DNA of 47,692 nucleotides. It comes from Oscillospiraceae bacterium (GTDB lineage: Bacteria > Bacillota > Clostridia > Oscillospirales > Ruminococcaceae). The notes under the pieces were generated by a model. That model saw nothing but the letters and a program-made list of their open reading frames with translations. It had not been told where the DNA came from and searched no databases. How positions within the stretch are numbered: position 1 is the first letter of the stretch; each line of letters begins with the position of its first letter. The position numbers were made by a program, and so were the translations under genes. Positions 12,682 through 20,826 of the stretch are shown one piece after another. The stretch covers positions 1 through 47,692 of the forward strand of contig JAZLFU010000016.1 of assembly GCA_045615915.1 (NCBI GenBank), in the 5' to 3' direction.

Positions 12682-13695
12682 TTACTTAGCTTTCTTTTTA
12701 GTACCAAGCAAGTAACCACCACCAAGGCCTAGTAAAATACAAATTATACTGGAAATAATCAGCACATTACCATCTCCAAAGATTGAGGCTGTATTGTTAT
12801 TCGCTTCAACTACCTCTTCGGAAATTATTTCTCCGCAATAATCACAAGTGTTTTTAACAATATAGGCAGGAATCTTTGTTTCAGTTATATGGTCGTGCTC
12901 ACCAGTTACATTGCATTTAAGAACATCACAGTATTGACAGTGTCCATTATCTTTCCACATGTGCTCACCAGTTACATCGCATTTAAGAACATCACAGTAT
13001 TGACAGTGTCCATTATCTTTCCACATGTGTTCGCCGGTTTCATCACACAAGAATTTTTCACAATACTCGCAATGTCCGTTGACATCCCATGTATGTTCAC
13101 CTGTCACATCACATTTAAATACACCGCAATACTTACAATATCCATCATCTCCCCATGTATGTTCGTTTGTGTCACATATAAACGCACCACACAGTTCGCA
13201 ATAGCCATCATTGCCCCAATAATGCTCATCGCATGTATAGTAAACTTTGATTATATCAAACTCAGAATATTTGGTGCCTCCATCAAAAGAAAATTCGCTG
13301 CTGTTAATATCATCGACATGAACCCATGTTCCCTTATTAACAGAGGTATTCTCTCTCTTGGTTCCTACTGTGACCCCTGCTTGTTCCCAATAAAAGCCAA
13401 AGTCACTAACGCGTGCCTCAATTCGCGTAATAGTGGCTTTTCTACCCTCTTTGACCCAAATTTTCACATAGTGATGTTCGTTTCCTCCGTAAACGGCTGT
13501 GTATGAAGGAACACATGCCTCAAGTAGAAAATTCTCCGTTTCAACAGTTGAAACTCTATAACCTCTTAAATCAAAATTAAATGTAAACGTTTCGTACAGC
13601 TCATCTGTTTTCGGATCTCTTTCAACCGCAAAAGCCGGAACCCAAAGAGACATTGCCATGATAAACACAAGAAGTAAACAGAATATTCTTTTCAT
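12682..13695 (-). CDS. Secreted, C-terminally membrane-anchored Cys/His-rich repeat protein (uncharacterized)
   Basis: The 337-aa product has a signal peptide (MKRIFCLLLVFIMAMSLWVPAFA), a ~130-aa N-terminal domain, and six tandem ~22-aa repeats with consensus C-D-x-T-G-E-H-x-W-x-x-N-G-H-C-x-Y-C-x-x-x-x. A C-terminal TM helix plus KKKAK follows. A TTGACA-type promoter lies upstream on the minus strand. Confidence 0.7.
   Translation of the reverse strand: MKRIFCLLLVFIMAMSLWVPAFAVERDPKTDELYETFTFNFDLRGYRVSTVETENFLLEACVPSYTAVYGGNEHHYVKIWVKEGRKATITRIEARVSDFGFYWEQAGVTVGTKRENTSVNKGTWVHVDDINSSEFSFDGGTKYSEFDIIKVYYTCDEHYWGNDGYCELCGAFICDTNEHTWGDDGYCKYCGVFKCDVTGEHTWDVNGHCEYCEKFLCDETGEHMWKDNGHCQYCDVLKCDVTGEHMWKDNGHCQYCDVLKCNVTGEHDHITETKIPAYIVKNTCDYCGEIISEEVVEANNNTASIFGDGNVLIISSIICILLGLGGGYLLGTKKKAK
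12823..13233 (-). repeat. In-frame coding tandem repeat array (six units of 19-31 codons, core 22 codons)
   Basis: The units read CDEHYWGNDGYCELCGAFI / CDTNEHTWGDDGYCKYCGVFK / CDVTGEHTWDVNGHCEYCEKFL / CDETGEHMWKDNGHCQYCDVLK / CDVTGEHMWKDNGHCQYCDVLK / CNVTGEHDH...CDYCGEII. Confidence 0.85.
12895..13026. repeat. Two adjacent 66-bp direct repeats differing at one position
   Basis: 12895-12960 and 12961-13026 are identical except 12912 (t) versus 12978 (c). They encode two identical 22-aa units. Confidence 0.9.
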
Positions 13696-14493: not shown

Positions 14494-14519
14494 CTTTATT
14501 AAAAAAATTGTGTTAAAAT
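14491..14519 (+). promoter_or_regulatory. Sigma-A-type promoter with extended -10, driving module B and the HTH gene
   Basis: TTGCTT (14491-14496), a 17-nt spacer ending in TGt, then TAAAAT (14514-14519). Confidence 0.55.
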
Positions 14520-14699
14520 AAAAATGCAATACAAACTTAAACTTAATATGCCTCTTAACAGTATGTATTTTTATCTTCTGATAAAAAATACATGCTCTAT
14601 TTTCACATACTGATAAGAGGTATTGTAGAAGTTTGTATTGCAGCAATCGGAGCTATGTATTTTTTGGTGCGTGGCTTCGGCTGCGCACTTTTTTATTTG
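14520..14699 (+). repeat. Non-coding module B: 5' leader of the HTH gene, with a 13-bp AT-rich hairpin (14563-14593) and a UUCG-capped terminator (14667-14694)
   Basis: It is a paralogue of module A. The terminator stem is gtgcgtggc-TTCG-gctgcgcac plus TTTTTTATTT, ending 8 nt before the first plausible start of the HTH CDS. Confidence 0.6.
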
Positions 14700-14702
14700 G
14701 AG

Positions 14703-15086
14703 ATGGCGCTCGGAATGAAGGAAAAAAGACTTTATGAAAGATCACATTGGGTTTTGGATGATGAGTTTTGGTCAAGAGAAAACGAAACGACAAACAAAAC
14801 CAATTTTAAAGCGTATCTTATCTATGATACTATTGCGAAAGTAGCGGATGAAAGCAATGTCCCAAAAGAAAAAATAGCAAACGAAATAGGCATTTCAATG
14901 AATACCGTATACAATATGAAAAAAGGTAAAATAAGCGATAAAGTTTATTACAGCAGCAGGATTTTCTTTAATGACAAATATGGGCTTAAAAGGCTCGGTG
15001 CTCTTTGCCGGGACGATGAAGCGACAGTAATATGGGTAGACCCCTACGGAGAAATACATACTGACAGAAGCGTTGCTACTTTATAA
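14703..15086 (+). CDS. Hypothetical helix-turn-helix protein
   Basis: KEKIANEIGISMNTVYNMKKGK is a classic HTH segment. The start is uncertain (ATG at 14703 or 14715). The ORF-track start at 14592 would read through the repeat and its terminator. Confidence 0.5.
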   Translation: MALGMKEKRLYERSHWVLDDEFWSRENETTNKTNFKAYLIYDTIAKVADESNVPKEKIANEIGISMNTVYNMKKGKISDKVYYSSRIFFNDKYGLKRLGALCRDDEATVIWVDPYGEIHTDRSVATL

Positions 15087-15118
15087 GTAAATTTTTCTTA
15101 AAAGTTGAATTTTACCTC

Positions 15119-15147
15119 TTGACTTTATGAGTTTAAAGTGTTATGCT
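15119..15147 (+). promoter_or_regulatory. Sigma-A-type promoter of the first SBP leader
   Basis: TTGACT (15119-15124), a 17-nt spacer, then TATGCT (15142-15147). Confidence 0.55.
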
Positions 15148-15186
15148 TTTAAATGTTAAAACTGCTAAAGGAAAGGAGCGCTGAAT

Positions 15187-15309
15187 ATGAACGGAATTTC
15201 TGTTTATAATATGCGATATGGTGAGAAGACAGTTTGCATTTTTACAAACTATCGCCGTTTGTATTATTTCGGAAAAACTGAAAGAGATTTTGCGCTTTTG
15301 CGTGCTTGA
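15187..15309 (+). CDS. Candidate leader peptide (40 aa) upstream of SBP gene 1
   Basis: GGAG lies 8 nt upstream of the ATG. The product is MNGISVYNMRYGEKTVCIFTNYRRLYYFGKTERDFALLRA, with 5 Tyr and 3 Phe, clustered as NYRRLYYF. It is below the ORF-track length cutoff. Confidence 0.3.
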   Translation: MNGISVYNMRYGEKTVCIFTNYRRLYYFGKTERDFALLRA

Positions 15310-15336
15310 ACGGTTTCGATAAAAAGAAATTGAAGG

Positions 15337-15378
15337 GCGTTTTTGCAAAAGCTCTTTGCAGAGGCGCTTTTTATTTTT
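15337..15378 (+). terminator. Intrinsic terminator inside the leader of SBP gene 1
   Basis: A 13-bp stem (15337-15349 / 15355-15367, three G-U pairs) with a 5-nt loop is followed by TTTTTATTTTT. It ends ~22 nt before the ATG at 15401. Confidence 0.6.
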
Positions 15379-15400
15379 AAAAATTCTGGAGGAAAAAACA

Positions 15401-16351
15401 ATGAAAAAAATTATCAGTTTAGTTTTGGTTTTCGCATTTATCTTTGCTTTTGCCGGATGCTCCAATGCTCCCGCCGCAAAAGACAGCTTCAAAGTCGGTA
15501 TCTGCCAGCTCGTACAGCACGAAGCTCTTGATGCCGCAACCGAAGGCTTTAAATCCGCTCTTACCGAAAAGTTCGGTGATAAAGTCGAATTTATCGAGCA
15601 GAACGCTTCCGGCGATTCCGCGACCTGCATCACCATTTGCAACCAGTTCGTTTCCGAAGGCGTTGATCTTATGATGGCTAACGCGACTCCCGCTCTCCAG
15701 GCTGCCGCCGCCGCGAGCAACACCATTCCGATAGTCGGAACTTCCATTACCGACTATGCTACTGCTCTTGAAATAACCGATTGGACCGGCAAGACCGGAA
15801 GCAATATCACCGGTACCGCCGACCTTGCTCCTCTTGATGAACAGGCGCAGATGCTCAAAGATATTTTCCCGGATGCAAAGAAAGTCGGTATTCTCTTTTG
15901 CTCCGCGGAGCCTAACTCCCTTTACCAGGCAAATGTTATCGGTGAGATCCTTACCGGTATGGGACTTGAAGTAACAAACTTCACCTTTGCGGACAGCAAT
16001 GACGTTGCTTCCGTTGCCGCAAATGCCTGCGCCGAATGTGATGTTCTCTATACTCCTACCGATAACGTAGTCGCAACCTGCAGCGAGACCATTCACAATA
16101 TCGCTCTTCCCGCAGGTGTTCCGATAGTCGCCGGTGAAGCGGGACAGAGCTGCGGCGCCGTAACTCTTTCCATAGATTACTTCGATATCGGTTATATCGC
16201 CGGTGAAATGGCAGCCGAGATCCTTACCGAGGGCAAAAACCCCGGCGATATGGATATCGGATTTGCTCCGAAGGTAACTAAAATGTTCAATCCCGCAGTT
16301 TGCGAGGCCCTTGGCATTGCCGTTCCCGAAGATTACGTTGCAATAGGCTGA
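15401..16351 (+). CDS. ABC transporter substrate-binding lipoprotein (PF04392-type; KEGG 'putative tryptophan/tyrosine transport system' class), paralogue 1
   Basis: It has a lipobox (FAFAGCS), then KVGICQLVQHEALDAA...NASGDSATC...ANATPALQAA, typical of this SBP family. The start was set at the ATG at 15401, which follows GGAGG. Confidence 0.8.
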   Translation: MKKIISLVLVFAFIFAFAGCSNAPAAKDSFKVGICQLVQHEALDAATEGFKSALTEKFGDKVEFIEQNASGDSATCITICNQFVSEGVDLMMANATPALQAAAAASNTIPIVGTSITDYATALEITDWTGKTGSNITGTADLAPLDEQAQMLKDIFPDAKKVGILFCSAEPNSLYQANVIGEILTGMGLEVTNFTFADSNDVASVAANACAECDVLYTPTDNVVATCSETIHNIALPAGVPIVAGEAGQSCGAVTLSIDYFDIGYIAGEMAAEILTEGKNPGDMDIGFAPKVTKMFNPAVCEALGIAVPEDYVAIG

Positions 16352-16442
16352 AAATAAAACAGCAAAAGGCTCAATTAAGGTAAAAGCTTCGTTTATTTGT
16401 TTTGCCGTTTTCGGAAAATGTTTGAAAAATTGCGAATTGCTA

Positions 16443-16471
16443 TTGACTTTTACGGTTTAAGATGATATATT
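16443..16471 (+). promoter_or_regulatory. Sigma-A-type promoter of the second SBP leader
   Basis: TTGACT (16443-16448), a 17-nt spacer, then TATATT (16466-16471). Confidence 0.55.
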
Positions 16472-16509
16472 TTTACTATCAAAATTGGTGAAAGGAAGTA
16501 CAAACCGCA

Positions 16510-16647
16510 ATGGCAAAAGCATTTTCCGATAAAATGGCAAGATACTTTAGCTTTACCGCTTGCTTTTTTGCAGGCTTCTTTTGCTATGCGTTTAAATTCT
16601 TTTTCTTTAGAAACAGAAAAAATATTGTGCTTCCGATGCTTGGCTGA
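16510..16647 (+). CDS. Candidate Phe-rich leader peptide (45 aa) upstream of SBP gene 2
   Basis: AAAGGAAG lies 11 nt upstream. The product is MAKAFSDKMARYFSFTACFFAGFFCYAFKFFFFRNRKNIVLPMLG, with 12 Phe codons of 45, including FFFF at 16597-16608. Confidence 0.35.
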   Translation: MAKAFSDKMARYFSFTACFFAGFFCYAFKFFFFRNRKNIVLPMLG

Positions 16648-16687
16648 TTTTGTATAATAAAAAACAAAATGTAAACCGTGAAAACAG

Positions 16688-16726
16688 CAGCTTCGCAAAG
16701 CACAAAATGCGAAGCTGTTTTATTTT
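16688..16726 (+). terminator. Intrinsic terminator inside the leader of SBP gene 2
   Basis: A perfect 10-bp stem cagcttcgca (16688-16697) / tgcgaagctg (16708-16717) is followed by TTTTATTTT. It ends 24 nt before the ATG at 16750. Confidence 0.7.
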
Positions 16727-16749
16727 GCAGCTTTAAAGGAGATCAAAAA

Positions 16750-17715
16750 ATGAAAAAGCTTATCTGTGCCATTCTTTTGGCAGCACTCGTACTTTCTCTT
16801 GCGGCCTGCGGAGAAGCCCCTGCGAATAACACTTCTGATGATACCTATATCGTAGGTATCTGCCAGCTTGTTCAGCACGAAGCCCTCGATGCGGCAACCA
16901 AGGGATTTAAAGACGTTCTTACCGAAAAGCTCGGCGATAAAGTAAAATTTATCGACCAGAACGCTTCCGGTGATTCCGCGACCTGCATTACCATATGCAA
17001 CCAGTTTGTCGCGGAAGGCGTTGACCTTATGCTTGCGAACGCAACTCCGGCTCTCCAGGCGGCGGTTGCTTCAACCGACAGTATTCCGATAGTCGGAACC
17101 TCCATCACCGACTACGCGACTGCTCTAGAAATTCAGGATTGGTCAGGAAAGACCGGCAAAAATATAACTGGTGCCGCCGATCTTGCGCCTCTTGATAAAC
17201 AGGCTGCGATGATAAAGGAGCTTTTCCCGGAAACAAAGAATGTAGGAATAATTTATTGCTCCGCCGAGCCTAACTCCGTATATCAGGCAGACGTAGTCGA
17301 AGGTTACCTCAGTGATATGGGGATAAACGTAAAACGTTACACCTTCGCCGATACCAACGATGTAGCTTCTGTTGTTTCCACGGCCTGCGTGGAAAGCGAT
17401 GCGCTTTATATCCCTACGGATAACACTGCGGCGACCTGCGGTGAAACCATCAATAATGTTGCGCTTCCCGCAGGTGTTCCGATCATTACCGGTGATGCCG
17501 GTACCTGCAAAGGCTGCGGCGTTGCAACTCTTTCTATAAGCTACTATGACCTCGGAAGAATTTCCGGCGAAATGGCGGCTGAAATCCTTATGGAAGGCAA
17601 AAATCCCGGAGATATGGAGATACAGTTTGCTCCCGAAGCAGTTCCGCAGTACAACGCCGTAAATTGCGCCGCCCTCGGAATCACTCCTCCGGAAAATTAC
17701 GCAGTTCTTGAATAA
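16750..17715 (+). CDS. ABC transporter substrate-binding lipoprotein, paralogue 2
   Basis: It has a lipobox (LSLAACG). It is roughly 70 percent identical by eye to paralogue 1 over the mature region. The start follows AAAGGAG. Confidence 0.8.
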   Translation: MKKLICAILLAALVLSLAACGEAPANNTSDDTYIVGICQLVQHEALDAATKGFKDVLTEKLGDKVKFIDQNASGDSATCITICNQFVAEGVDLMLANATPALQAAVASTDSIPIVGTSITDYATALEIQDWSGKTGKNITGAADLAPLDKQAAMIKELFPETKNVGIIYCSAEPNSVYQADVVEGYLSDMGINVKRYTFADTNDVASVVSTACVESDALYIPTDNTAATCGETINNVALPAGVPIITGDAGTCKGCGVATLSISYYDLGRISGEMAAEILMEGKNPGDMEIQFAPEAVPQYNAVNCAALGITPPENYAVLE

Positions 17716-17773
17716 CGGATAAAAGGAATACTTTTGGCATTTCTCAATATAAACATTTGGGGGTCATTTCTTA

Positions 17774-18715
17774 ATGGATTTTTTGGCAGCATTCGGCGGG
17801 CTTGATATCATGACACTTTTTAAGGCCTGTCCGGGTTATATAGCGCAGGGTGCAATTTGGGGCATTATGGCGCTCGGACTTTATATCTCTTACAGCATAT
17901 TGAATTTCTCCGATCTTACAGTCGATGGTTCCTTTGCAACCGGTGCTGCGGTGGCGGTAATGCTTATACTTGCAGGCTGGCCCGCGTGGGCGGCTATGAT
18001 AATAGCTACCGTTGCCGGTATGATAGCGGGACTTATAACGGGTATTCTCCATGCGGCTCTCGGTATTGCGCCGATACTTGCCGGAATACTTACCCAGATA
18101 GCCCTCTATTCGATAAACCTTCATATTCTCGGCAATAAACCGAACCAGGCGGTAAGCGTTGATAAATATGATCTGATACTTTCCCTCCGTACTGTCAATT
18201 CCGCAATATTTGTGGCTCTTGCCTTTGCCGCCGCTCTTATAGCGCTGTTCTACTGGTTCTTCGGAACGGAAATAGGCTCCGCAATAAGAGCAACGGGATG
18301 TAACGAAAGAATGGCAAAGGCCCAGGGAATAAACACCAATCTTATTAAGATCTTTGCCCTTGCGATCTCCAACGGAATAGTTGCTTTTGCCGGTGGACTT
18401 CTTGCCCAGTACCAGGGTTTTGCCGATGCTCAAATGGGACGCGGCGCCATAGTAATAGGCCTTGCTTCCATAATAATCGGCGAAGTTCTTGCGGAGGTCA
18501 TTTTCCATAAACGTATGCATTTTGCGGTGTGCCTTACCTCTGCGGTGGTCGGCGGAATTATATATTACGTTGTAATGGGAATTGTTCTTTGGCTCAAGCT
18601 TCCTACAAACGATATGAAACTCTTTACGGCAATAATCGTTGCGGTATTCCTTGCCGCGCCTCAACTCAAAGGCAAACTGAAAATAGGCCAAAAGAAAAAA
18701 CAGGTTGAGGATTAA
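17774..18715 (+). CDS. ABC transporter permease (branched-chain/BPD_transp_2-like, partner of PF04392 SBPs)
   Basis: The 313-aa polytopic membrane protein follows the SBP genes and precedes the ATPase. Confidence 0.75.
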   Translation: MDFLAAFGGLDIMTLFKACPGYIAQGAIWGIMALGLYISYSILNFSDLTVDGSFATGAAVAVMLILAGWPAWAAMIIATVAGMIAGLITGILHAALGIAPILAGILTQIALYSINLHILGNKPNQAVSVDKYDLILSLRTVNSAIFVALAFAAALIALFYWFFGTEIGSAIRATGCNERMAKAQGINTNLIKIFALAISNGIVAFAGGLLAQYQGFADAQMGRGAIVIGLASIIIGEVLAEVIFHKRMHFAVCLTSAVVGGIIYYVVMGIVLWLKLPTNDMKLFTAIIVAVFLAAPQLKGKLKIGQKKKQVED

Positions 18716-18729
18716 GGGAGGTAACGGTT

Positions 18730-19533
18730 ATGGCAATGCTTGATATAAACGGAATTTATAAAACTTTTAATCCCGGCTCGATAAACGAAAAACGCGCTCT
18801 CAACGGCGTTGAGCTTCATCTCAATCCCGGTGATTTTGTAACCATAATCGGAGGCAACGGAGCAGGTAAATCCACTATGCTCAACGCCGTTGCCGGAGTT
18901 TGGCCCGTTGACGAAGGAAGTATCCTTATTGACGGAGTTGACGTTACCAATCTTCCCGAATATAAACGCGCGAAGTTCCTCGGAAGAGTTTTCCAGGATC
19001 CTATGACAGGAACCGCGGCGAATATGCAGATCGAAGAAAACCTTGCTCTTGCCGCAAGAAGAGGAAAACCGCGCGGACTTAAATGGGAGGTTACAAAAGA
19101 GGAAAAAGAGAATTTTCACGAGCTTCTCAAATCCCTCGACCTCGGTTTGGAAGACAGACTTTCCGCAAAAGTCGGACTTCTTTCCGGTGGCCAGCGTCAG
19201 GCGATAACCCTTCTTATGGCGACTCTCGTTAAACCGAAGCTCCTTCTCCTTGATGAACATACTGCGGCTCTTGACCCCAAAACCGCGTCGAAGGTTCTCG
19301 ACCTTACGGATAAAATAATCAGTGAGAACAATTTAACGGCGCTTATGGTAACTCATAACATGAACGACGCCATAAAACACGGCAACCGCCTTGTTATGAT
19401 GAATGACGGAAAGATCATTTATGACGTTTCCGGTGAGGAAAAGAAAAATCTTACCGTTGACGATCTTCTTAAAAAGTTTACCGAAGTTTCCGGCGAGGTT
19501 TACGCCGATGACAGAAGTATGCTCGCAAAATAA
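18730..19533 (+). CDS. ABC transporter ATP-binding protein
   Basis: It has Walker A (GGNGAGKST), the signature LSGGQRQ, and Walker B (LLLLDEHTAALD). A strong SD precedes it. Confidence 0.85.
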   Translation: MAMLDINGIYKTFNPGSINEKRALNGVELHLNPGDFVTIIGGNGAGKSTMLNAVAGVWPVDEGSILIDGVDVTNLPEYKRAKFLGRVFQDPMTGTAANMQIEENLALAARRGKPRGLKWEVTKEEKENFHELLKSLDLGLEDRLSAKVGLLSGGQRQAITLLMATLVKPKLLLLDEHTAALDPKTASKVLDLTDKIISENNLTALMVTHNMNDAIKHGNRLVMMNDGKIIYDVSGEEKKNLTVDDLLKKFTEVSGEVYADDRSMLAK

Positions 19534-19570
19534 TTTGTTTTCTCCTTAACTCTTTACATTATTATAAAAA

Positions 19571-19604
19571 TGCGCAGATGAATTTTTTCACCTGCGTATT
19601 TTTT
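19571..19604 (+). terminator. Intrinsic terminator after the ABC operon
   Basis: The stem tgcgcagatg / cacctgcgta (one mismatch, one G-U pair) has an 8-nt loop and is followed by TTTTTT. Confidence 0.55.
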
Positions 19605-19686
19605 ATACAAAAAATTTAAAACCGGCGTTTTTTTGCTCCGTTTTGGCAGAAAATAATATAAGTATCTGAATAACGGAGGCTTTGAA

Positions 19687-20826
19687 TTGAGAAATTTTGA
19701 AATGAAAACGAAGGTCTTTTACGGAGAAAACGCCCTTGACCGTATTCTCGAAGAAAAAAGCAGATGCGCATTTGTGATAGCCGATCCCTTTGCCGTAAAA
19801 AGCGGCCTTATAAACCGGGTTACCGAAAGGCTCGACCAAAAGGGAATACGCTATAAAATTTTTGATGACGTAGTTCCGGATCCGCCTATGGATAAAGTTA
19901 TCGAGGGCGTAAAAATGGCGCTTGAAATACATTCGGACTGTCTGATGGCGGTGGGGGGCGGCTCTGCGATGGATTATACGAAGGCTGTTCGTATGTTCGC
20001 AAGGAGAACGGATCCTACCTTCGATCCTAAATTTGTGGCAATTCCCACAACGAGCGGAACGGGAAGTGAGGTTACGGAGGTAGCGGTAATAACCGACACG
20101 AATAAAAACACAAAAAATCCAATATGTTCAAAGGAGCTTATTGCCGATGAAGCGATACTCGATGCGGAGCTTGTGAAAACGGTTCCGCAGAATATAACCG
20201 CGGATACGGGTATGGATATTATGACTCACGCGCTGGAAGCCTTTGTAAGTACGGGCCACAGCGATTTTACCGATGCCCTTGCGGAAAGAGCAATAAAGCT
20301 CTGTTTTCGCTATCTTTTGCGCTCCTACGAAAGCAAGGACGATACAAAGGCGAAAGAAAAAATACACGTTGCTTCCTGTATGGCGGGAATCGCTTTTAAT
20401 TCCGCGGGGCTTGGGCTTAATCACGGAATGGCACACCAGCTCGGAGCAAGGTTCCATATTCCCCATGGAAGGGCAAACTCAATACTTCTCCCCTATATAA
20501 TAGATTACAACAGCGGAGCGGCGGCATCCGGCAACAGCGAAAATTCCTGTGTGGGAAGATACTGCGAAATTGCCGCGGGCCTTGGAATAACCGGAGCGGA
20601 CGAGACCACAACTCTTCATTCGCTTATGAATTATTTCAAAATGCTCGCGAAGGAAATGAATATGCCCGGCTCTGTTGAAGAAATAGGCAATATCCAAAAG
20701 GAGGAGTATTTTTCCGCGATAGACGAAATGGCGGAAGCGGCGCTTTATGACGCCACAACGCAGACAAATCCGAGAACTCCGGAAAAAGAGGAAATAGTCG
20801 AACTATTTAAAAGAATTTGGAACTGA
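19687..20826 (+). CDS. Iron-containing (group III) alcohol dehydrogenase
   Basis: AVGGGSAMDYTKA, the TTSGTGSEVT motif, and the metal-binding His region (HGMAHQLG...HIPHGRAN) are present. The TTG start lies 7-8 nt after GGAGG. Confidence 0.8.
   Translation: MRNFEMKTKVFYGENALDRILEEKSRCAFVIADPFAVKSGLINRVTERLDQKGIRYKIFDDVVPDPPMDKVIEGVKMALEIHSDCLMAVGGGSAMDYTKAVRMFARRTDPTFDPKFVAIPTTSGTGSEVTEVAVITDTNKNTKNPICSKELIADEAILDAELVKTVPQNITADTGMDIMTHALEAFVSTGHSDFTDALAERAIKLCFRYLLRSYESKDDTKAKEKIHVASCMAGIAFNSAGLGLNHGMAHQLGARFHIPHGRANSILLPYIIDYNSGAAASGNSENSCVGRYCEIAAGLGITGADETTTLHSLMNYFKMLAKEMNMPGSVEEIGNIQKEEYFSAIDEMAEAALYDATTQTNPRTPEKEEIVELFKRIWN

Follow-up and report, generated by a model that had tools for sequence, protein, structure and literature searches.

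Two tandem SBP genes and a candidate attenuator

We analysed a 47,692-nt stretch of DNA from an Oscillospiraceae bacterium (contig JAZLFU010000016.1; hereafter the window), in which two tandem genes for PF04392-type substrate-binding proteins (SBPs), 66% identical to each other, are followed by genes for the permease and ATPase of an ATP-binding cassette (ABC) transporter. The element of interest, attenuator 2, occupies positions 16443–16749, directly upstream of SBP gene 2. Its sequence and that of related loci suggest that it is likely a ribosome-mediated (leader-peptide) transcription attenuator, which would gate SBP gene 2 together with the downstream permease and ATPase genes. The features of attenuator 2, and those of a similar unit upstream of SBP gene 1, are collected in Table 1.

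Attenuator 2 begins with a putative promoter, P2, which agrees with the sigma-70 consensus at 10 of 12 positions and is one of the two best matches in a promoter scan of 14500–20000. Downstream lies a short open reading frame (ORF), leader ORF 2, preceded by the Shine–Dalgarno (SD) sequence GAAAGGAAG (16490–16498). Phe codons make up 12 of its 45 codons (F5, 13, 15, 19, 20, 23, 24, 28 and 30–33), and the run F30–F33 corresponds to 16597–16608. This abundance is specific to the reading frame, as TTY codons number 12 in the frame of the ORF, compared to 5 and 3 in the other two. When the sequence was shuffled with dinucleotide composition preserved, the mean number of in-frame Phe and Tyr codons was 7.3, and none of the 5000 shuffles reached the 14 observed. 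Inside the ORF, a small GC hairpin followed by a U-rich tract could conceivably act as an RNA polymerase pause site.

The ORF is followed by an intrinsic terminator (terminator 2), in which the arms CAGCTTCGCA (16688–16697) and TGCGAAGCTG (16708–16717) form a 10-bp stem around a 10-nt loop, trailed by TTTTATTTT (16718–16726). The predicted energy of the hairpin is –14.7 kcal/mol, or –17.9 kcal/mol including flanking pairs. A consensus terminator scan missed it for the sole reason that the loop limit of the scan was 8 nt. The T-run stops 23 nt ahead of the SBP2 ATG, and the promoter scan found no promoter between terminator 2 and the SBP2 SD (23 nt). A preliminary description of the window, made from the letters alone, had reported the P2 promoter, an SD-preceded 45-codon ORF with 12 Phe codons, the terminator and an antiterminator, and our analysis recovers each of them at the same positions. 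Public annotation places the start of SBP2 (345 aa, P0001) at a GTG in the terminator region (16678), so that the called gene spans the terminator. The SD and the lipoprotein signal MKKLICAILLAALVLSLAAC identify the ATG at 16750 as the true start; automatic gene calls of this kind hide the attenuator.

Table 1. Features of the two SBP gene units and their leaders
Feature	Position	Strand	Details
Promoter P2 (putative)	16443–16471	+	TTGACT-17-TATATT, extended –10 TG
Region 1: 5' untranslated region (5'UTR) and SD region	16480–16503	+	Predicted anti-antiterminator, SD-sequestering; two 10-bp helices with region 2
Leader ORF 2 (W2)	16510–16647	+	45 codons, 12 Phe and 2 Tyr; peptide MAKAFSDKMARYFSFTACFFAGFFCYAFKFFFFRNRKNIVLPMLG; ATG 16510, stop 16645–16647
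Small GC hairpin in leader ORF 2, then U-rich tract	16558–16575	+	From folding and sequence scan
Main regulatory codon cluster (candidate), F28-K29-F30-F31-F32-F33	16591–16608	+	From codon counts and in-frame alignment
Region 2	16625–16652	+	16625–16646 is the antiterminator 5' strand and spans the last 7 codons and the stop
Region 3: terminator 5' arm (16688–16697) and loop (16698–16707)	16688–16707	+	Antiterminator partner of region 2
Region 4: terminator 3' arm (16708–16717) and T-run TTTTATTTT (16718–16726)	16708–16726	+	
SBP gene 2	16750–17715	+	PF04392 lipoprotein; SD AAAGGAG 16735–16741
Permease (BPD_transp_2)	17774–18715	+	Downstream of attenuator 2
ABC ATPase	18730–19533	+	Downstream of attenuator 2
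Promoter P1 (putative)	15119–15147	+	TTGACT-17-TATGCT; overlapped by putative operator GACTTTATGAGTTTAAAGTG (15121–15140)
Sister leader ORF 1	15187–15309	+	SD-preceded, 40 codons, 5 Tyr and 3 Phe, including YRRLYYF; peptide MNGISVYNMRYGEKTVCIFTNYRRLYYFGKTERDFALLRA
Sister terminator 1	15331–15378	+	19-bp stem (15331–15373), –21.4 kcal/mol, then T-run; just before the SBP1 SD
SBP gene 1	15401–16351	+	PF04392 binding protein

Alternative pairings in the leader

The segment 16625–16646 can pair with 16688–16705 to form an antiterminator that engages 7 of the 10 nt of the terminator arm and 8 of the 10 loop nt. In a transcript cut ahead of the 3' arm, with a ribosome on F33, the antiterminator has a predicted energy of –21.1 kcal/mol, compared to a mean of –11.8 kcal/mol when the upstream part is shuffled (P about 0.01). 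Region 2 has a second potential partner in region 1, through helices of 16480–16489 with 16643–16652 and of 16494–16503 with 16625–16634. This 5'UTR:region 2 duplex is predicted at –23.1 kcal/mol (P = 0.004 versus shuffles). Comparable duplexes are seen in leader 1 and in most relatives of the W and C classes (P = 0.004–0.27), and the sequences that form them differ between the two window paralogues. Each leader as a whole folds better than its shuffles, with z = –2.7 for leader 2 and z = –3.7 for leader 1.

The preliminary description had held that a ribosome stalled on the Phe run leaves region 2 free and that one at the stop codon masks it. The predicted footprints agree: that of a ribosome on F33 ends at about 16621, and a ribosome at the stop codon covers about 16630–16660. 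Region 1 lies outside the cover of a ribosome stalled at F28–F33.

We propose the following model. Transcription would begin at P2, and a ribosome would translate the 45-codon leader. With Phe-tRNA (and Tyr-tRNA) plentiful, the ribosome would pass region 2 to reach the stop codon and would keep region 2 masked during synthesis of regions 3 and 4 by the polymerase, allowing the terminator to fold and ending the transcript near 16726. With charged tRNA-Phe scarce, the lead ribosome would stall on Phe codons, above all F28–F33, leaving region 2 exposed to pair with the terminator 5' arm and loop and allowing the polymerase to read through. If the leader is not translated at all, the 5'UTR and SD would pair with region 2, and the terminator would again form. 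As the 5'UTR competes for region 2, following ribosomes probably also have to occupy the SD and start region for antitermination to occur; a stalled lead ribosome and continued ribosome loading would act together. When the leader was folded with ribosome-covered nucleotides masked, the terminator formed with a ribosome at the stop codon. With F33 and the SD/AUG both occupied, the minimum-energy fold was the antiterminator, with zero terminator pairs.

Conservation of the leader ORF among close relatives

We compared the leader with those of close relatives, as the preliminary description had suggested, and found the ORF, its frame and its aromatic codons to be conserved. The closest relative, contig L072 (SBP 92% identical), keeps the leader ORF to the same stop. 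Its sole indel within the ORF is 3 nt long, and those outside the ORF are 1, 1 and 2 nt. L072 matches the window exactly in regions 2 and 3, and its single change in the 3' arm retains a G-U pair. More distant relatives, L075 (SBP 73% identical) and L082 (72%), have ORFs of 40 and 41 codons, respectively, with an SD spacing of 8 nt, which align in frame with W2 (W2, ACFFAGFFCYAFKFFFFRNRKNIVLP; L075, ARYFAGFFCHAYY-YRYYRF; L082, ACYFAGYFCHAYY-FRFRSNNLIALP). Residues conserved among W2, L072, L075 and L082 show synonymous third-position changes, such as GCA/GCG/GCT and GGC/GGA. A minus-strand ORF of 82 aa (16450–16698) was also considered as a gene and rejected; it has no Pfam match, and the 1-nt indels of L072 fall inside it.

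The FKFFFF cluster of W2 aligns with YY-YRYY in L075 and YY-FRFR in L082. Regulatory positions that are Tyr in L075 and L082 are Phe in W2 and L072, each by a single A-to-T change, and at least six aligned positions have switched from Tyr to Phe in this one lineage. The Phe-rich state therefore represents a derived condition, found in the window and L072 alone.

Could the arrangement reflect chance, with a T-rich spacer that happens to be open in one frame and a hairpin that is simply the terminator of SBP1? The region is 38% T, and no other obvious SBP1 terminator lies within 16352–16442. However, promoter P2 sits between SBP1 and the hairpin, single-SBP loci in which the genes further upstream are separately terminated show the same layout, and neither the codon count in shuffled sequences nor the in-frame conservation described above fits this idea. 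Chance is hardly credible as an explanation.

A family of Tyr- and Phe-rich leaders

We then extended the analysis to other genomes. Sampling one genome per species, we identified 70 loci in which an SBP gene (product 50–66% identical) lies ahead of permease and ATPase genes; upstream DNA was readable in 65 of these. Fourteen of the 65 have, upstream of the SBP gene, an aromatic-rich short ORF with SD and ATG, an intrinsic terminator, and a segment able to capture the terminator 5' arm and loop. These loci are mostly from Oscillospiraceae metagenome-assembled genomes, and the predicted peptides (e.g. MASVRFAAAYYYYYFFRTGNRSLCCNKT, MFFRFAAAYRYYRYFKGK, MAVRFAYAYGYYYYFSNR and MNQQAFAFAYFYYYYFTKK) include runs such as AAAYYYYYFF. 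Further relatives were obtained through homologous proteins and the contigs that encode them, in metagenome and genome assemblies.

In all, 22 leaders were examined, drawn from the 14 genome loci, from L071–L081 and from the window, which contributed two. Every one has an SD- and ATG-bearing short ORF rich in Tyr and Phe codons, with a terminator 13–58 nt past the stop whose 5' arm and loop can be captured by an upstream segment. TAY codons number 3–8 in the frame of the ORF versus 0–3 in the other frames, and this holds for each leader. Comparable aromatic-rich ORFs occur in contigs L082, L084 and L085; a terminator was found in two of them, L084 and L085, but the corresponding stretch of L082 is broken by a run of N, and no terminator was found there. 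Judged by its codons, the leader family is overall Tyr-rich or mixed Tyr/Phe.

BLASTN and nhmmer searches with the two window leaders against the 70 loci matched only the promoter/operator stretch, and hence homology among the leaders was traced through ORFs and helices. Leader classes share little sequence beyond the ORF and the alternative helices. The exact window leader peptides were absent from the protein collection searched. By contrast, one 30-residue leader peptide of the class termed group A belongs to a cluster of 28 unnamed variants, listed members of which are found on up to 475 contigs each. In the 15 variants read, RFASAY-YYYF is invariant save for one position, which is S or F.

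In group A, GTCGTTTGTGC pairs with GCACAGACGAC, which comprises the terminator 5' arm, the loop and the first base of the 3' arm, to give an 11-bp antiterminator. Across six distinct sequences, 97% of cells in this helix are paired, and two pairs have changed on both sides (GTCGT:ACGAC versus GAAGT:ACTTC). These are compensatory changes of the kind that the preliminary description had proposed to look for. The pairing score was reached by 1 of 500 shuffles, and helices in slid registers are paired in only 27–48% of cells. A plain terminator has no reason to keep complementarity between its loop and an upstream segment. In full-length folds of group A leaders, the conserved FAxAY codons pair with region 2, yielding the classical 1:2 / 2:3 / 3:4 scheme.

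These data bear on a different possibility, namely that leader ORF 2 is an independent gene for a small (membrane) protein with its own terminator, and that SBP2 is expressed by leaky read-through with nothing being sensed. In line with this, YFSFTACFFAGFFCYAFKFFFF forms a hydrophobic stretch of ~22 residues between basic residues, and synonymous changes accompany conservation of the peptide motif AC(Y/F)FAG(Y/F)FC. On the other hand, SBP2 has no promoter of its own past terminator 2, the leader peptide has no Pfam match, and the peptides of group A are 18 residues long and highly charged (MFFRFAAAYRYYRYFKGK), quite unlike a membrane peptide. Moreover, the terminator loop is complementary to the end of the ORF, with covariation, a property that a plain terminator would not need. 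We regard a small-protein gene as rather improbable and favour the attenuator.

The unit upstream of SBP1 and a putative operator

The unit upstream of SBP1 contains the same parts in the same order as attenuator 2, and the two leaders can be aligned. A nearly identical copy of this sister unit (15119–15400) is present in contig L071. A scan of 16352–16442 found no terminator between SBP1 and P2; P1 transcripts therefore probably meet attenuator 2 as well.

The operator consensus published for HisR, a member of the TrpR family, is a 20-bp palindrome, cacTTTA-N6-TAAAgtg (PMC9413887). The candidate operator that overlaps P1 has perfect HisR-consensus half-sites and is the only such site in the window. 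The spacer of P2 holds a degenerate copy with three mismatches, GACTTTT-N6-TAAGATG (16445–16464). Many orthologous loci have a HisR-type motif in the promoter spacer. The two layers of putative control occur in different combinations: most Lachnospiraceae-type orthologues have the operator without the attenuator, group A has the attenuator without the operator, and the W and C classes have both.

In three contigs with tandem SBPs (L073, 1–1440; L076, 2880–4440; L084, 970–2500), the first copy has the operator-bearing promoter only, and the second has an attenuator (peptides e.g. MKNMKVFANEYFMFRCARFMSAYSRYKNS). The arrangement is reversed in a fourth, L081 (1900–3500). A tblastn search of the window with E. 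coli TrpR as the query found no TrpR-family gene. A 164-aa helix-turn-helix-like protein encoded at 14592–15086 was considered as the regulator and rejected, as it is conserved only in L071.

The transporter and its potential ligand

Among solved PF04392 proteins, CD0873 holds Tyr, VC_1101 holds Phe and SP1069 holds Trp (PMC6816091). At the positions of Glu263 and Tyr279 of CD0873, SBP1 and nearly all orthologues have E/Y, and SBP2, L072 and the chimeric SBP of L071 have D/Y. Asp249 of SBP2 (17494–17496, in the motif TGDAG) corresponds to the Glu263 position, where SBP1 has the motif AGEAG. At this position, whose residue contacts the tyrosine hydroxyl in CD0873, nearly all of ~130 other homologues checked have Glu; the exceptions, L042 and L061, both have no leader. 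The change to Asp coincides with the Phe-rich leader, but this is a single evolutionary event, and no independent Asp-type SBP that might be used to test the link was found among the top 60 homologues.

L071, with an Asp-type SBP behind leader 1, was considered as a contradiction of the link between Asp and the Phe-rich leader and set aside, since its SBP is a chimera of SBP1 and SBP2. The gene (494–1450) is the one SBP gene behind leader 1; its first ~360 nt are about 98% identical to SBP1, and the remainder is SBP2-like. Recombination with deletion within the tandem pair would account for it, as would an assembly artefact.

Two of the related loci also carry T-boxes with a UGG (Trp) specifier (L029, 6908–7153, 106 bits; L047, 6862–7117, 103 bits). 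These precede a distant PF04392 paralogue (~30% identical) that lies immediately downstream of the orthologous transporter operon.

More tentatively, the duplicated SBP copies may have kept their own attenuators and tuned them to different aromatic amino acids, with leader 1 retaining ancestral codons of the Tyr type and leader 2 reprogrammed to Phe by A-to-T changes at at least six Tyr codons. The Glu-to-Asp pocket change would then belong to the same lineage, regulatory codons and transporter specificity would have co-evolved, and a TrpR-family repressor would answer to aromatics rather than histidine. We consider this set of events possible but doubtful. If true, it would give Clostridia an uptake system under dual control comparable to that of the trp operon.

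Elsewhere in the window, a minus-strand ORF at 12682–13695 (337 aa) contains tandem Cys-rich repeats (CDVTGEHMWKDNGHCQYCDVLK and variants); its N-terminus resembles a signal sequence, and a membrane anchor lies at the C-terminus.

Weighing the attenuator model

Several observations count against the model, or against its Phe specificity. The SD-to-ATG spacing of leader ORF 2 is rather long (11 nt, compared to 8 nt in relatives), and the hydrophobic stretch of the W2 peptide might be a membrane segment too. When only the F33 ribosome is masked, the equilibrium fold of leader 2 retains the 5'UTR:region 2 pairing and the terminator, and thus the switch must depend on kinetics or ribosome loading. 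For leader 1, the terminator is the minimum-energy fold under every masked state, so any switch there must be kinetic; aromatic enrichment of leader ORF 1 is also weak (P about 0.07). Only L072 among the close relatives is Phe-rich, and therefore Phe specificity rests on one lineage. The HisR-like operator at P1 and at orthologous promoters hints at a different amino acid, should the factor be HisR itself. Finally, we had to reject the pocket residues as a predictor of the ligand, because the paralogues behind Trp T-boxes likewise have E/Y at the Glu263 and Tyr279 positions.

The masked folding called for in the preliminary description thus gives a mixed result: the terminator forms with a ribosome at the stop codon, as expected, but an F33 stall alone is insufficient, and occupancy of the SD/AUG is needed too. 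Otherwise, the leader-peptide attenuator has withstood all the sequence-level and comparative tests run, with the refinements that the family is Tyr-rich or mixed and that the 5'UTR competes for region 2. Our confidence in strict Phe specificity is lower than our confidence in the attenuator itself.

Some of these same observations would suit a generic translation-coupled attenuator, one that reports overall translation or ribosome loading (SD occupancy versus 5'UTR:region 2 pairing) rather than Phe-tRNA charging, with aromatic codons inherited from a Tyr-sensing ancestor or left by neutral Tyr-to-Phe drift. Pairing of the 5'UTR/SD with region 2 is strong in the two window leaders and in the majority of relatives of the W and C classes, the antiterminator attains minimum energy only when the SD/AUG is occupied too, and the Phe codons of leader ORF 2 are spread across its entire length. 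However, this reading leaves unexplained the frame-specific enrichment of Tyr/Phe codons in 22 of 22 leaders, including runs like YYYYYFF in group A, and the classical layout of group A, where the regulatory codons lie within region 1. In addition, the switches from Tyr to Phe at six or more positions in one lineage look directional. We consider a purely generic attenuator unlikely and favour one that would respond to aromatic aminoacyl-tRNA.

Comparison with known systems

Firmicutes are usually described as sensing amino-acid supply via T-boxes. PF04392 transporters have been reported under T-box control, including TrpXYZ and, in S. suis, TrpX (PMC9382623), which share with the system described here both the protein family and the logic of coupling uptake to tRNA charging. 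Here, however, the sensor would be a translated ORF instead of a tRNA-binding RNA. No T-box features were found: the T-box model (RF00230) had no match at the window leaders, and the T-boxes of L029 and L047 served as a positive control. Searched at gathering thresholds, the entire window matched no Rfam model, and a more permissive search of 14900–17000 (E up to 10) likewise gave no relevant hit. None of the Rfam leader families (Phe_leader, Trp_leader, His_leader and others) matched in the window or in 12 related loci. At the level of sequence, attenuator 2 thus has the attributes expected of a leader-peptide attenuator, and it belongs to no curated family.

These searches also address the idea that the attenuator is controlled by a protein, tRNA or ligand (as in a riboswitch, a T-box-like element or an RNA-binding-protein type of control), with the open frame incidental. 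Both window leaders are more structured than their shuffles, and T-box control of related transporters offers a precedent. But the T-boxes of L029 and L047 were detected while the window leaders matched nothing, sequence conservation between leader classes is slight beyond the ORF and alternative helices, and the SD, the ATG, the frame and the aromatic codons are conserved. This idea appears very improbable compared to the leader-peptide attenuator proposed here.

The classical parallels are E. coli pheL-pheA and pheM-pheST (Rfam Phe_leader). As in those systems, attenuator 2 has a short ORF with a Phe run, followed by mutually exclusive antiterminator and terminator hairpins, and its antiterminator strand would be released when a ribosome stalls at Phe codons. 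There are several differences. Attenuator 2 shows no sequence or covariance-model similarity to the E. coli leaders; its ORF has 45 codons with Phe spread along it, compared to about 15 codons; and its anti-antiterminator is the 5'UTR/SD, in contrast to the segment containing the regulatory codons. Its host is of the Clostridia type rather than a gamma-proteobacterium, and its targets are an uptake SBP gene and ABC transporter rather than genes for biosynthesis or an aminoacyl-tRNA synthetase (pheA and pheST).

A similar comparison can be made with the dual control of E. coli trp, which combines a TrpR operator with trpL. The P1 unit and the W- and C-class relatives examined likewise have a TrpR-family-type operator over the promoter, followed by a putative attenuator, and group A has the region 1:2, 2:3 and 3:4 pairings. 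Unlike in trp, the operator consensus is that of HisR, the codons are Tyr/Phe rather than Trp, and the operator of P2 is only degenerate.

The aroR-aroF leader of C. glutamicum contains Phe-Tyr-Phe and reportedly responds to Phe, not Tyr, as summarised in PMC11802643 after Neshat et al. 2014. It resembles the present family in its mix of Phe and Tyr codons and is the only described leader of this kind that we found for aromatic control. It differs in being actinobacterial, in preceding a gene for 3-deoxy-D-arabino-heptulosonate 7-phosphate (DAHP) synthase and in having three regulatory codons; homology is not implied.

Within the Firmicutes, leader-peptide attenuators have been predicted or demonstrated for His (B. 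cereus group, Peptostreptococcaceae) and, in S. aureus, as a Leu-rich ilv-leu peptide (PMC2965389, PMC9413887, PMC5794164). These share the phylum-level setting and the class of mechanism with attenuator 2, and are evidence that Firmicutes do not rely exclusively on T-boxes. They differ in their codons (His or Leu) and in their targets (biosynthesis or aminoacyl-tRNA synthetases), with no Tyr/Phe leader or PF04392 target reported there. The preliminary description was aware of no earlier report of such an element, and our full-text literature searches agree: none was found with Tyr/Phe codons among Firmicutes leader peptides or upstream of a PF04392-type transporter.

Collectively, these comparisons point to an uncatalogued leader-peptide family, with no Rfam model, that would govern ABC uptake of the aromatic amino-acid type in gut and rumen Oscillospiraceae. 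Such a family would bring tyrosine into the set of amino acids for which leader-peptide sensing is known, and its regulation would hint at what is transported by a clade of transporters that has been little characterised. The natural Tyr-to-Phe codon swap between close relatives would also offer a ready test of how attenuator specificity evolves.

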